Positions 3,704 through 34,130 are shown, counted from the stretch's first letter. The stretch is DNA of 34,130 bases from a virus (IMGVR_UViG_3300014962_000002:1-34130), one strand, 5' to 3'. Numbers and translations are program-made. Notes: generated by a model not told the origin, from the sequence alone.

Positions 3704-3920
3704 ATGTTTCTCCGTTTGCTAAGATTATGTTTAATACTTCTAAGCCCATCATCATCCAACCGATTATAAGCATTTGGTCTGCATCACTCAACCCGAATTT
3801 AGATAACGTACCAGTAAGCACCGAACCCGAAGTAACTAAGTAAATAATTCTTTTTGTCTTTCTATACCATGCAGGAGCAGGCTTAGTGTGATTGCTTGGA
3901 CTTATTGTTGTCTTTGCCAT
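3684..3920 (-). CDS. holin/antiholin candidate, 78 aa, two hydrophobic segments
   Basis: IIYLVTSGSVLTGTL and MLIIGWMMMGLEVLNIIL; position in the lysis cassette. Confidence 0.45.
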   Translation of the reverse strand: MAKTTISPSNHTKPAPAWYRKTKRIIYLVTSGSVLTGTLSKFGLSDADQMLIIGWMMMGLEVLNIILANGETYEKSEN

Positions 3921-4092
3921 TTCGGATGTTACTTTTAATCGTTAAAATATAAGAAGTTAAGCCAACTATTGACAAAGCAATTTTTAAAACTAAGTCAATG
4001 TTGGTCAACGCTATAACGGGAACAGCGCAAATAGTGCCTACTACATTGCCCATGATGGACATGAATATATGGTTTGGGTCTTGATGAATCAT
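3883..4092 (-). CDS. holin candidate, 69 aa, two TM segments and a charged C-terminus
   Basis: VVGTICAVPVIALT and ALSIVGLTSYILTI, followed by KSNIRNGKDNNKSKQSH. Confidence 0.5.
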   Translation of the reverse strand: MIHQDPNHIFMSIMGNVVGTICAVPVIALTNIDLVLKIALSIVGLTSYILTIKSNIRNGKDNNKSKQSH

Positions 4093-6754: not shown

Positions 6755-7336
6755 TTATTCTATTGGGAATCCATTACCTTGATACCTATCTTTTAAGGGA
6801 ATACTATCCCAATAATCATTATCTTGACCTAAATAAATTGAGGTTGTGTAACCCATTGTAGAAGGTTTAAGCGTATCAATTCTTGCAGCAAAATTCAAGT
6901 ATTCAGGGAATGAGTTTCTGTTCTCTTGAAGGTATTTAACTAAGCATTGAGCGTAATGTTCAGCGTACCTCTTATGTTTATTCTCGATTGCTATAATCTC
7001 ATCTCCGCTTAATGTTTGTGCATTTTGGTCAGTCTTCTTAACTACTCCTTTATTATAGAACTGATAGGATAATTCAGGAGTTAACTCACTCATCACAAAC
7101 CAACAAAGCGCATCAGTTATATAGTTGTCAATCAAACCATTTTCCAAAGTAGTTAGGTTATTATTATCAATCCCTTGCAAAAGCCTATCAAATAACTCGC
7201 TACCTAAGATGGGTCTCAAGTGCATATCTTGACTAACCTTAATAATCGGTAGAACTAACTTTTCATCTACATTAGAATGTAAGCCCGTTCTTTCCTTTAT
7301 TGCCGCTACTGAAATTAAAAGTGTATTACTTGCCAT
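6755..7336 (-). CDS. virion-associated protein (possible head-tail adaptor)
   Basis: Position only; overlaps the portal-like gene by 11 nt. Confidence 0.45.
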   Translation of the reverse strand: MASNTLLISVAAIKERTGLHSNVDEKLVLPIIKVSQDMHLRPILGSELFDRLLQGIDNNNLTTLENGLIDNYITDALCWFVMSELTPELSYQFYNKGVVKKTDQNAQTLSGDEIIAIENKHKRYAEHYAQCLVKYLQENRNSFPEYLNFAARIDTLKPSTMGYTTSIYLGQDNDYWDSIPLKDRYQGNGFPIE

Positions 7337-9329
7337 TGTTTTGTTTTTTTACGACCATTCTTGCATCCCAAATATGGCGACAATGAAACTTAATATCTCC
7401 GTTGTCATTCCACCAACCTCCCACTCTTTCAAATACCGAATAACCCAATCTTGTACTTATTTTCTCAATGTCGGTACGCCCCCAAAGTTTATTTAAACCC
7501 ATCATTCTAACACAGAACTCTCTACTTGGGTGAGCTTTAGTATTTCTTTCAGATTGTGGGATTTCACTACGCCAATCATAAGCATACATCACACGAAAGT
7601 TAGTAGTAGTCGGCTTCTTATCTAACAAGTCCATTAATGGAGATGTTAATTCAGTTACCACGCTGCCAAGATTGTTAGTAGTTTGCTTTATTGCGCCTTT
7701 GTCCAAGAGTGATTTAAGTATTGCATCTGCTTCGTCAATATCTATCTTTAAAGCCTTGCTAATCGCTTCTGAATTAATCAATTTATCCTTATCAATCAAT
7801 CCCAAAACTTTAGCCTCATTATTTGTGAAATCGTCTTCAAAATCAATCCTCGCAAGTTCCTCTTCTACTGAATCCCTGAATAATTCTTTGCGTGAAACTT
7901 CGATGTAGTCGTCTTTACTTTCTCCAAACTCGGAAAAGATACTTATTAAATCCTCATCGCTAAATTGTTGTTGTGTGGTCAACATTTGGTTAGCCTCTTC
8001 ATCCGTCAAACCATAACCCGATTTTAGCAACATTGTAGCTTGTTCTTTGCTTAGTTTACCTTGCTGCATTTTACGAACTATCCTATCAATGTTTTGGTGT
8101 TGTCTCCCGGTTAAGTTTTTGATATTATCGTTCGCCGTTAGACCTTGAGTAGTTGGGTTATTATCAGTAATAACATTATACTTACTTGGGTCAATTCCTA
8201 ACTTTTCATAAACAAACTCTTTCGGCAATAACGCTAATAATTGCGGTTGAAAATAATCAATCTGTAAAGGCTCTAATTTCTGAATCTTTATTTTAGAAGT
8301 CGCACCATTTATTGACAAAATACCATTAAATACACTTTCAACGAATTGTTGGTACTCTTCTACATAGGTATTGTTGAATATCTCATAAGCCTCCACTATC
8401 TCACTTCTACCGCCTAATTGCCCCTCTGTTTTAATCCCGAAAAGCATCGGTGAAGTAATCTTATGACCTGCAAATATTTCTTGCTGAATCAGGTTATTAA
8501 CGGCTGTAAAATCTTCCTTAGTTAGATCCGATTGCCCTAAATCCTCAATTATTGTTTTTTGGTCTTTATTCTTTACGAATTCGATAACTACCTTACTGCC
8601 ATTCGCACCCGTGAAACGTTCTTTAAATTTACGTTCAATTCTTTTCTTTGCATCTTCCGTTGGTGGTTCACCACTTGTAAAAGATATTTGTTTGCTTGAG
8701 TTAAACCCACATTGCGCATTGCCTAAAACGTGCTTACTTATCTCAACATCCGATTGAATGTAGTTAACACAATTTAAATATTCAGGAATAGCATAGGCAA
8801 ACATATTAGGTCGATACTTCTTAACGTAAAGTATCTGTGTGCCTTTCCTAACATTTGGATTGAAACTAGGGTAAACTTCGGCTTTGTCTTTATTAAATAA
8901 CGCCCAACTATCTTTTATCCAAAATTGAGTGTTATCAGCGTTTGTTCTAACTTTACAATAATCAATGTGAGATATAGCCGCTACTTTATTGCCCATAACT
9001 GACCAATCACATTGAAGGTAGAAACCACCGAATATAGCAAGGTCAAGTACACATTTAGAACTAACAGAAAACAAATCCTCATTCTTGTTAGCCTTGCCTA
9101 TGAAAGCCCTTGAGATAGTATCTGCTTCGTCTTCTAAAGCCCATCCACGCCCGTTTATGTAGTTAGCCTTACCTTGTACTATTGCGCCATGTTTTGGGCT
9201 GCCATCATAAAGCGACATGATGAAATTAGGATAGTCGTTACTTTCACCAAAATTTATATAGCCTTGCCTATTCTTTTGCTCTAAAGGTTTAGGTGCTTCC
9301 GCAAAAGTTAATATTTCTATATTATTCAT
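7326..9329 (-). CDS. portal-like protein with C-terminal Mu F/SPP1 gp7-like head-morphogenesis region
   Basis: The N-terminus (INFGESNDYPNFIMSLYDGSPKHGAIVQGKANYINGRGW) resembles portal N-termini I recall. The C-terminus (AHPSREFCV...GGWWNDNGDIKFHCRHIW) resembles the MuF-type HP.CRC end. Confidence 0.5.
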   Translation of the reverse strand: MNNIEILTFAEAPKPLEQKNRQGYINFGESNDYPNFIMSLYDGSPKHGAIVQGKANYINGRGWALEDEADTISRAFIGKANKNEDLFSVSSKCVLDLAIFGGFYLQCDWSVMGNKVAAISHIDYCKVRTNADNTQFWIKDSWALFNKDKAEVYPSFNPNVRKGTQILYVKKYRPNMFAYAIPEYLNCVNYIQSDVEISKHVLGNAQCGFNSSKQISFTSGEPPTEDAKKRIERKFKERFTGANGSKVVIEFVKNKDQKTIIEDLGQSDLTKEDFTAVNNLIQQEIFAGHKITSPMLFGIKTEGQLGGRSEIVEAYEIFNNTYVEEYQQFVESVFNGILSINGATSKIKIQKLEPLQIDYFQPQLLALLPKEFVYEKLGIDPSKYNVITDNNPTTQGLTANDNIKNLTGRQHQNIDRIVRKMQQGKLSKEQATMLLKSGYGLTDEEANQMLTTQQQFSDEDLISIFSEFGESKDDYIEVSRKELFRDSVEEELARIDFEDDFTNNEAKVLGLIDKDKLINSEAISKALKIDIDEADAILKSLLDKGAIKQTTNNLGSVVTELTSPLMDLLDKKPTTTNFRVMYAYDWRSEIPQSERNTKAHPSREFCVRMMGLNKLWGRTDIEKISTRLGYSVFERVGGWWNDNGDIKFHCRHIWDARMVVKKQNNGK

Positions 9330-23053: not shown

Positions 23054-23483
23054 TTGTTATGATTTTAGATTCTAAATGTGATTTTACTTTGTTGATTATG
23101 TTTAGTAATGTCTTTCTCGGTACCTGTGATTTTCGGCTAAACTCTGAAATATTTTCACCGAATGCGTAATCCTCAAAGATTCTACGTTCAACGCTATTTA
23201 AAGGCTCAAGGCACTCGAGTAAGCGGTCAATCCTTGCATCTATATTAATCTCGCTTGCTTCGTCTTCTTTGATATTAAGGACATTACTATTGAAGTCAAT
23301 CGGATCTATTCTTGGATTCAGATACTTTCTTTTAAAATCACTGCCTCTTGTAAAGTTCATTAATGTTCTTACACAATACCATTGCATCCAACCTTCATTA
23401 ATACCTCGTTCTATAAAACCTTTGTCTTTCTCTTCTTTTTCGTAAAGTGATATAAATAACTCATGTTTTGCATCATGTTGCAA
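22977..23483 (-). CDS. ECF/sigma-70-like late transcription regulator
   Basis: Region-2-like W.WYCVRTLMNFTRGSDFKRKY and region-4-like HTH LNSVERRIFEDYAFGENISEFSRKSQVPRKTLLNIINKVKSHL. It is the first gene of the late arm, directly upstream of the terminase genes. The start is TTG with no in-frame upstream ATG (the frame is open to 23573). Confidence 0.5.
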   Translation of the reverse strand: MQHDAKHELFISLYEKEEKDKGFIERGINEGWMQWYCVRTLMNFTRGSDFKRKYLNPRIDPIDFNSNVLNIKEDEASEINIDARIDRLLECLEPLNSVERRIFEDYAFGENISEFSRKSQVPRKTLLNIINKVKSHLESKIITNDILNGNNVDDISDRVQQVWQLELF

Positions 23484-23568: not shown

Positions 23569-23576
23569 CAAAGTTA
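23569..23576 (-). promoter_or_regulatory. Candidate -7 box (TAacTTTG on the minus strand) for the sigma-like gene
   Basis: Matches TAnnTTTG, but the -33 region reads TTTT rather than TTTG. Confidence 0.3.
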
Positions 23577-23628: not shown

Positions 23629-23659
23629 TTTGCAGATTTAAAAAGTTGTTCTATCTTTG
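23629..23659 (+). promoter_or_regulatory. Bacteroidota-type promoter P-early1 (TTTG-N19-TAtcTTTG)
   Basis: TTTG at 23629-23632 and TATCTTTG at 23652-23659 with a 19-nt spacer. About 45 nt is shared with the promoter at 33627-33657. Confidence 0.75.
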
Positions 23660-23664
23660 TGTTA

Positions 23665-23801
23665 TCAAAGTGAAAGGGATACAATCACAGAGACGGTAAG
23701 CTACCCACCGAAGCAAGAAGATAGCCCCAAACCACACATAAGGTACACGGGAAAATACTCAGGAACAAGCCGCTGAAAAGTGTTGGCAACTGCAAATGAA
23801 A
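23665..23801 (+). ncRNA. Untranslated, compositionally atypical leader RNA upstream of the ribozyme (5' end inferred)
   Basis: No start-codon-initiated ORF. Hand count of 23671-23800 gives 60/130 G+C and 16/130 T. Confidence 0.45.
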
Positions 23802-23859
23802 GGTTAACTGATGAGTTCTTCAATAGACGAAACTAGGGTTAAAATCCCTAGTCTTAACC
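23802..23859 (+). ncRNA. Type I hammerhead self-cleaving ribozyme motif
   Basis: Stem I ggttaa (23802-07) pairs with ttaacc (23854-59). CUGAUGA is at 23808-14. Stem II is G23815-C23828 plus 2 bp. GAA is at 23829-31. Stem III is 7 bp, actaggg (23832-38) with ccctagt (23846-52). The GUC triplet has C17 at 23853. Confidence 0.8.
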
Positions 23860-23875
23860 AATAAAACTAACTAAA

Positions 23876-24133
23876 ATGAAATGTCAATTAGTAAACGAAG
23901 GAACAAAAAACGCAATGAGATTACAATCTATTGGTGTTGTTTTAGGAACACCTGCATCAGAAATTAAAGAAGGTGATTTCTTAATGTGGAATTTTGGCTC
24001 AGTTTATTCAGTAAATTCTATATTAAAAGAAACTGATAAAATGATTGTTATATCAACATCTCCAAAAGGAAGTGATACAGTCTATGAGCAAAAATTAAAG
24101 AAATCAAGATTAGTATGCAAATTAGAAAACTAA
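23876..24133 (+). CDS. hypothetical early protein, 85 aa
   Basis: First ORF after the promoter/ribozyme. Confidence 0.65.
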   Translation: MKCQLVNEGTKNAMRLQSIGVVLGTPASEIKEGDFLMWNFGSVYSVNSILKETDKMIVISTSPKGSDTVYEQKLKKSRLVCKLEN

Positions 24134-33626: not shown

Positions 33627-33657
33627 TTTGCAGTTTTAAAAGTTTAGTGTATCTTTG
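33627..33657 (+). promoter_or_regulatory. Bacteroidota-type promoter P-early2 (TTTG-N19-TAtcTTTG)
   Basis: TTTG at 33627-33630 and TATCTTTG at 33650-33657 with a 19-nt spacer; paralogous to 23629-23659. Confidence 0.75.
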
Positions 33658-33948: not shown

Positions 33949-34130
33949 ATGAAATCAATAGTAACAACTACAAACACTACCGAAATCAAAAATGCATTTC
34001 AAAACAAATTCGGGATGATAACAAGTAATACACCTGAAGTAAGAGATTCAGTAGCAAACTACGCAAAGTCTTTAGTAGCTAAACTTCATGAAGAAAAAAA
34101 CAAATCATTAAATAACAAAGCACTCGATTA
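33949..34130 (+). CDS. hypothetical protein, 61 aa, crossing the window junction (stop completed at nt 76-78)
   Basis: Open frame from ATG 33949 to the window end; continues in frame into the repeat copy at the window start. Confidence 0.6.
   Translation, partial: MKSIVTTTNTTEIKNAFQNKFGMITSNTPEVRDSVANYAKSLVAKLHEEKNKSLNNKALD
34054..34130. repeat. Terminal direct repeat, copy 2 (identical to 1-77)
   Basis: 77/77 nt identity. Confidence 0.95.

Follow-up and report, generated by a model that had tools for sequence, protein, structure and literature searches.

The window analysed here is a viral sequence of 34,130 nt (IMGVR_UViG_3300014962_000002). Its first and last 77 nt (1–77 and 34054–34130) are identical, which makes it a complete phage genome of about 34,053 bp, either circular or terminally redundant. 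The genes for terminase, portal and tail proteins point leftward, beginning at about 23483; exonucleases, a helicase and a replication-initiator-like gene are encoded rightward from 23876. The terminase protein TerL is at most 32% identical to those of cultured phages, and more than 590 uncultivated contigs carry a TerL at 60–65% identity. The following features were located in the 392-nt divergent intergenic region and beyond it.

23629–23659, plus strand: predicted promoter from a motif scan, with TTTG at −33 (23629–32), a 19-nt spacer and TAtcTTTG at −7 (23652–59).
23665–23801, plus strand: promoter-proximal leader of about 137 nt, A/C/G-rich and without a start codon, recognized by its composition.
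23802–23859, plus strand: type I hammerhead ribozyme, from direct reading, a descriptor and a covariance model.
23854–23875, plus strand: A/U-rich leader of 22 nt, UUAACCAAUAAAACUAACUAAA, which cleavage would leave on the mRNA; its length equals the median of the hammerhead subclass described below.
23876–24133, plus strand: first rightward gene, for an 85-aa protein, from the ORF list; no PHROG match.
33627–33657, plus strand: near-identical twin promoter (AAAAAAAATTTGCAG..TATCTTTGT), from the motif scan, used as an internal control.

The motif TTTG-N19-TAtcTTTG at 23629–23659 corresponds to the Bacteroidota promoter consensus and would place the transcription start at about 23664–23667. A sigma-70 promoter scan was uninformative; the Bacteroidota-type motif fits instead. 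No terminator was found between this promoter and the hammerhead. Downstream of the twin promoter come about 20 nt of leader and the start codon ATG 33680, with no hammerhead, and it seems that the phage employs one type of promoter more than once for its rightward units. On the minus strand, TAACTTTG at 23569–23576 fits the −7 consensus TAnnTTTG. It precedes by about 80 nt the first leftward ORF, which starts at 23483, and is a candidate promoter for divergent transcription of the packaging and structural operon. A −33 TTTG to go with it was not evident on that strand.

The 85-aa protein has no Pfam or PHROG assignment. It has 81 homologues at 45–89% identity, not one of them with a hammerhead ahead of it, found beside Rep_1 or Rep3 replication genes, beside terminases and in phages, and the gene is typically the first after a Bacteroidota-type promoter; it looks like a mobile small gene. 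Three relatives (L022, L026 and L139) carry the same promoter motif before a homologue of this gene. Leaders before the homologue are 25–50 nt long in the relatives, as against about 210 nt in the window.

Much of that extra length is the segment 23665–23801, in which T is scarcer (12% versus 33%) than in any other 137-nt stretch of the genome and whose GC content of 45% falls at the 99th percentile. No structure is predicted for it (fold z-score +0.36), it has no Rfam match even at E<=10, and no relatives were found in annotated phages, in 1.17 Mb of hammerhead-bearing loci or at the protein level. Several identities were considered for this leader. A gene remnant was unsupported, the open frame of 38–44 codons being start-less and having neither a protein homologue nor a tblastn match in the hammerhead-bearing loci. 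A known RNA was ruled out by the lack of an Rfam match at E<=10 and of a fold signal, and an antisense regulator of another phage gene by complementarity to the genome that stays at chance level. Kinship with the noncoding RNAs upstream of other hammerheads was likewise rejected, since none in 1.17 Mb is similar.

The leader runs into the ribozyme, whose elements on the plus strand are as follows.

23801: A directly 5' of stem I; A in 97% of the GGUUAA subclass.
23802–07 with 23854–59: stem I, GGUUAA/UUAACC, the open end.
23808–14: core C3–A9, CTGATGA, aligned to the core columns of the covariance model.
23815–28: stem-loop II, GTTCTTCAATAGAC, with G10.1–C11.1, one bulged U, 3 bp and the loop UCAAU.
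23829–31: G12–A14, GAA, aligned to the core columns of the covariance model.
23832–52: stem-loop III, 7 bp with the loop UUAAAAU.
23853: C17, the cleavage nucleotide of the hammerhead consensus.
23853–23854: predicted self-cleavage site 3' of C17, placed by its position in the hammerhead consensus.
23860: A directly 3' of stem I; A in 97% of the GGUUAA subclass.

Read directly, the plus strand from 23802 to 23859 gives in order GGTTAA, CTGATGA, GTTCTTCAATAGAC, GAA, ACTAGGG-TTAAAAT-CCCTAGT, C and TTAACC. The invariant hammerhead core, C3 U4 G5 A6 N7 G8 A9 together with G12 A13 A14, is present in full at 23808–14 and 23829–31. The A15.1–U16.1 pair is A23832/T23852 and is followed by C23853 as H17, which is not G. 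G23815 and C23828 form G10.1–C11.1, and stem II has the two or more base pairs that a hammerhead requires. Stems II and III are capped and stem I is open, which defines type I topology. The element retains all 11 invariant core nucleotides, its three helices, both flanking A's and the consensus of loop II. The initial annotation had described a complete type I hammerhead at these positions from reading the DNA alone, and every base and coordinate that it named proved right. It had also drawn stem II as three pairs with a terminal G–U and an 8-nt loop. The short stem opened by G10.1–C11.1 holds, but the remainder was revised: Infernal aligns G–C, a bulged U, U–A, C–G and U–A around the loop UCAAU.

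The elements through which members of the subclass may join loop II to stem I are all present, namely UCAAU, A23801 and A23860; the loop II pattern U-N-A-R-U and the A's flanking stem I would make a tertiary contact. By eye, UCAAUA of loop II is also complementary over 6 bp to UGUUGG at 23781–86 and could in principle form a pseudoknot with it, but a match of this size would arise within the flanks by chance about half the time, by our estimate.

The statistical standing of the motif was assessed in several ways. Our own type I/II/III descriptor, run on both strands of the window, returned one site, 23802–23859, with stems of 6/3/7 bp. Stems of at least 6/3/7 bp occurred in 0 of 1000 dinucleotide-preserving shuffles of the window, and a minimal-stem descriptor gave 0.25 matches per shuffled window. 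A covariance model was trained on 14 type I hammerheads from other viral contigs with the window left out. The window hammerhead aligned to it over its full length with 55.9 bits (E~1e-14), and the next-best site in the window scored 13.1 bits. Part of the 55.9 bits comes from identity of the stem III sequence, because the pattern used to pick the training contigs contains CGAAACTAGGG, a part of stem III common to the window; we estimate the inflation at about 10 bits. The hammerheads of two contigs outside the training set (L147 and L148), whose stems I and III are unlike those of the training set, still reached 48–51 bits. In the class alignment 98.5% of the cells are paired and 14 of the 17 pairs show compensatory changes on both sides, compared with only about 30–40% of cells paired in slid controls. 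The descriptor, Rfam and the covariance model agree that the whole window holds no second hammerhead on either strand, as the initial annotation had reported.

Rfam itself was silent at its own thresholds. A search of 4227 families at gathering thresholds returned no match in the window. In a permissive local scan the best model was the RAGATH-1 hammerhead (RF03152) with 32.8 bits against a gathering threshold of 56.3, and Hammerhead_3 reached 12.6 bits. Hammerhead_1 (RF00163), which has type I topology as the window element does, yielded nothing reportable even at E<=10 when 251 nt were searched. The initial annotation had named a score below the gathering threshold as a refutation of the ribozyme. 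The score does lie formally below it; the value is nevertheless uninformative, because the same thresholds miss nearly all clear relatives. In a calibration set of 19 viral contigs (L001–L019) that share the core and the start of stem III and hold about 45 textbook type I hammerheads, the gathering thresholds reported none of the pattern-matched hammerheads and picked up only a few others there. In L147–L149 they found one of about 17. Hammerhead_1 detects only a minority of the compact phage subclass. The sub-threshold score is a limitation of the models and says little against membership.

Membership of the RAGATH-1 family was considered and rejected on the sub-threshold score and the unmatched 5' hairpin of that model. 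What does align is the core of the hammerhead, its open stem I, the hairpin of stem III and the region of the reduced stem II. The 5' hairpin is only weakly matched in the window, with three of four pairs formed, one non-standard pair and five loop positions deleted, and stem II comprises 1 bp in the RAGATH-1 model as opposed to 4 bp and a bulge in the window.

Relatives of the window element are abundant. More than 119 viral contigs carry the identical stem I, GGUUAA/UUAACC, together with the core, and so do 11 contigs from bacteria, of which six belong to Bacteroidota (Paraflavitalea, Agriterribacter, Sphingobacteriales, Cryomorphaceae and a Bacteroidetes MAG). These contigs yielded 140 complete hammerheads in 125 distinct contexts, on which the following statistics are based; an earlier, broader sample of hammerheads gave the same picture. 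An A stands directly 5' of stem I in 97% and directly 3' of it in 97%. Loop II follows U-N-A-R-U with its conserved positions at 88–100%, H17 is C in 78% and A in 22%, and stem III ranges from 4 to 14 bp. The next ATG follows the cleavage site at a median distance of 22 nt (IQR 20–23, n=115). In 94 of 120 cases (78%) the preceding ORF has its stop codon no more than 5 nt from the 5' edge of the ribozyme or inside it, and in about 15% of the subclass noncoding sequence takes the place of an upstream ORF.

The closest likenesses are the hammerheads of L147 and L148, which are identical to that of the window in stem I, core and stem II save for one U, and whose stem III differs from it with full compensation. 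The window copy fits every feature of the subclass, including the spacing of exactly 22 nt, except for the upstream stop codon; only the promoter and the start-less leader precede it. The leader at 23854–23875 has no Shine–Dalgarno sequence and resembles in sequence the post-hammerhead leaders of L148 and L009. The window hammerhead is a new example of an abundant phage hammerhead subclass placed just ahead of genes.

Many contigs of this kind hold arrays. At least 10 type I hammerheads occur within about 8 kb in each of L007, L013 and L149, and L148 has five in 1.7 kb (1258–2955); in all four, almost every gene has one before it. In the array contigs the upstream stop is often a TAA inside stem I or a TGA in the core, and the Rfam gathering thresholds find about one hammerhead per contig.

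Type I hammerheads of phages and prophages, their intergenic placement, their arrays flanking phage genes and a proposed part in the processing of polycistronic RNA were described in 2011 (PMC3088659). The compact subclass among them has the same core, stem I, loop II, flanking A's, C17 and 22-nt A/U-rich leader as the window element. Most of its members (78%) abut an upstream stop, often in arrays of 5 to more than 10 per contig, whereas the window copy is solitary, has a promoter and an orphan noncoding leader upstream, and carries a bulged U in stem II.

A placement like that in the window also has a precedent outside this subclass. In the haloviruses HF1 and HF2 a hammerhead lies 13 nt upstream of the first early ORF, and a mapped transcript 5' end coincides with the cleavage site (PMC3088659). 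That ribozyme, HHphage, resembles the window element in its short distance upstream of the start codon (13 nt in the haloviruses, 16 nt in the window) of the ORF that opens an early or replication polycistronic unit; the transcript end mapped to the cleavage site is that of HF2. It differs in that it is a variant from an archaeal virus, carries insertions in its catalytic core and is adapted to high salt, in contrast to the canonical core of a bacterial, Bacteroidota-like phage in the window. The initial annotation had called a ribozyme between a promoter-proximal RNA and the early-gene mRNA of a phage an unusual arrangement. This description was not supported, given the more than 119 contigs with identical stem I, the median of 22 nt in 125 contexts, the roughly 15% of members without an upstream ORF and the HF1/HF2 precedent.

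In the phage's own relatives the element is missing. No hammerhead was found at about 60 loci with homologues of the 85-aa protein (up to 89% identity), nor in 80 loci around related terminases (682 kb), and none in all in about 807 kb from these relatives (682 kb and 125 kb). The loci searched include no homologous locus with a hammerhead from which covariation or conservation at this site could be read. The sole other copy is an identical unitig from one sequencing run. Intergenic likeness to the hammerhead-bearing contigs is confined to 23796–23880, that is, to the ribozyme and the short leader. Because some 807 kb of relatives lack a hammerhead, the copy was probably gained horizontally: ribozyme and short leader together appear, from these comparisons, to have been acquired rather than to be ancestral to the phage lineage, and the acquisition is probably recent.

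Two further observations concern the surroundings of this copy. A distant relative (L008, IMGVR_UViG_3300045738_000428), with a portal protein at 33% identity (E 1e-57) and four other proteins in common, carries two type I hammerheads with another stem I type at 8564–8641 (−) and 8844–8898 (−); hammerheads therefore occur sporadically in the wider phage group. The only other assembly of this phage consists of two Logan unitigs (L021 and L150, SRR1573580), which overlap by about 29 nt at window positions 23741–23769 and break inside the T-poor leader, which could reflect population heterogeneity or a shared k-mer.

Taken at the level of sequence, the element at 23802–23859 is probably a functional type I hammerhead that would cleave itself between 23853 and 23854 and yield a short leader with a 5'-OH. 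Transcription would proceed from the promoter at 23629–23659, with a start at about 23665, through the 137-nt T-poor leader into the ribozyme, where the RNA would fold and self-cleave between C23853 and U23854. The 5' product would measure about 190 nt, comprise the leader and nearly the whole ribozyme, and end in a 2',3'-cyclic phosphate. The 3' product would be the operon mRNA with a 5'-OH and an unstructured A/U-rich leader of 22 nt, the same short kind of leader that promoters would give directly elsewhere in this phage and its relatives. The likely benefit would be that translation and stability of the first gene are insulated from the long upstream leader. Both the 22-nt length before ATG 23876 and the position in the 5' UTR had been predicted in the initial annotation and are borne out by the sequence: the ribozyme is on the coding strand, its cleavage site lies 22 nt upstream of the first rightward recombination/replication gene, and a promoter lies upstream.

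A comparable arrangement is known from engineering. In synthetic insulators of the RiboJ type, a self-cleaving hammerhead-type ribozyme between promoter and RBS removes a variable 5' leader and leaves a fixed short leader with a 5'-OH. RiboJ was engineered from the ribozyme of a plant satellite RNA and given an extra hairpin, whereas the window element is natural; the two are alike in their placement between promoter and gene.

The main purpose of the same cleavage might instead be 3'-end formation for a noncoding RNA some 190 nt long, made up of the T-poor leader and the ribozyme body and having a function of its own in infection, with trimming of the mRNA secondary. This reading is unlikely, although several observations speak for it. 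The leader is compositionally the most extreme stretch of the genome and lies outside the shared hammerhead module, about 15% of the subclass has noncoding sequence and not an ORF upstream, in five viral contigs a noncoding RNA conserved among them separates the hammerhead from a promoter-like element, and in L160 and L207 a noncoding stretch of about 100–130 nt lies between two hammerheads. Against this, none of the searches turned up a relative of the window's leader, and Rfam has no match for it. No structure is predicted (z = +0.36), its complementarity to other parts of the genome is not significant, and it may be a decayed fragment transferred together with the module. A more specific form, in which the main job of the hammerhead would be to make a discrete phage small RNA of about 190 nt that acts early, for instance by sequestering an RNA-binding factor or nuclease of the host as a decoy or sponge, we regard as more doubtful still. 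If the small-RNA reading were true, it would fit a wider, undescribed habit of Bacteroidota phages of cutting noncoding RNAs from operon transcripts, of which L182, L202, L215, L247, L274, L160 and L207 would be examples.

The loci with noncoding RNAs beside GGUUAA-type hammerheads are of two kinds. In L160 (about 3830–4080, minus strand; Paraflavitalea speifideaquila NZ_CP135920) and L207 (about 7262–7500, plus strand), the noncoding sequence of about 100–130 nt has such hammerheads on both sides, and the two loci have the motifs AGaAAGCGC and GGAAUAAGU in common. Double cleavage there would excise a small RNA with a 5'-OH and a 2',3'-cyclic phosphate, which an RtcB-type ligase could in principle circularize. 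The other five (L182 2524–3043, L202 3813–4332 and L215 2159–2678, plus strand; L247 8416–8935 and L274 6342–6861, minus strand) hold a conserved T-poor noncoding RNA of about 100–220 nt, with large indels between contigs, between a TTGACA-containing promoter-like element and a GGUUAA hammerhead. The noncoding RNAs of all seven loci are absent from Rfam.

The bulged U bears on a different alternative, that the element is an inactive or decaying relic: the module would have arrived by recombination from another phage, an inserted U would have crippled stem II, and the remnant would persist in a long 5' UTR. Stem II of the window equals that of L147 and L148 (GUCU-UCAAU-AGAC) with one extra U. 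The hammerhead-competent fold lies about 2 kcal/mol above an alternative MFE fold; when the extra U is deleted in silico, the hammerhead becomes the MFE fold, just as in L148. Stem II is predicted to form with a probability of 0.08, at the 9th–13th percentile of 70 class members, and stems I and III are at or above the class median in the native context.

The inserted U, which destabilizes stem II and was unique among the 45 sequences aligned first, speaks in favor of a relic. To it can be added that the copy is single, that the lineage is otherwise without hammerheads (none in 682 kb and 125 kb of related loci), and that the start-less open-frame fragments upstream suggest co-transferred junk. 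Nevertheless, neutral decay should have struck some of the 11 invariant core nucleotides, the helices, the A's beside stem I or the consensus of loop II, and the integrity of all of these speaks against a relic. Moreover, three other lineages share this plan of stem II (G10.1, a 1-nt bulge, 3 bp and a 5-nt loop), as G(A)GCU in L162, as G(C)GCU in L170, L210 and L278, and as G(C)ACU in L181, L194 and L233. In the last of these the ribozyme has been kept with its bulge while the flanks have diverged. Bulged forms of stem II make up about 5% of the subclass. A stem II of only 2 bp is common among natural hammerheads (Perreault et al. 2011, PMC3088659), and such ribozymes are active. On this evidence, decay is quite improbable.

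A chance likeness to the hammerhead consensus, with no evolutionary or functional tie to ribozymes, could draw on the failure to reach the Rfam gathering thresholds and on the 0.25 minimal-stem matches per shuffled window, but it is effectively refuted by the absence of the observed stems from 1000 shuffles, the 55.9 bits (E~1e-14) on the covariance model, the near-identity of stem I, core and stem II to the L147/L148 hammerheads, and the conserved flanking A's and leader length.

The preferred reading, a self-cleaving hammerhead that trims the mRNA, accounts for an otherwise odd 210-nt leader and predicts that the mRNA of the replication operon has its 5' end at 23854. The role of such phage ribozymes is acknowledged in the field to be undefined (PMC6765202). 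What the present case adds is mildly new and consists in a solitary, probably recent copy, its orphan leader, and the abundance, stereotypy and poor detection of the subclass.

More broadly, the compact hammerhead with its short leader is a module that many phages of Bacteroidota-like hosts place ahead of their genes. The compact type I subclass is very common in uncultivated, mostly Bacteroidota-associated phages and has a rigid geometry, with the stop codon in stem I and about 22 nt to the ATG. Routine annotation will overlook these GGUUAA hammerheads, since the Rfam gathering thresholds miss almost all of them. A solitary copy of this kind in a cultivable relative would suit the study of short-leader mRNAs with a 5'-OH in hosts whose initiation does not depend on a Shine–Dalgarno sequence.
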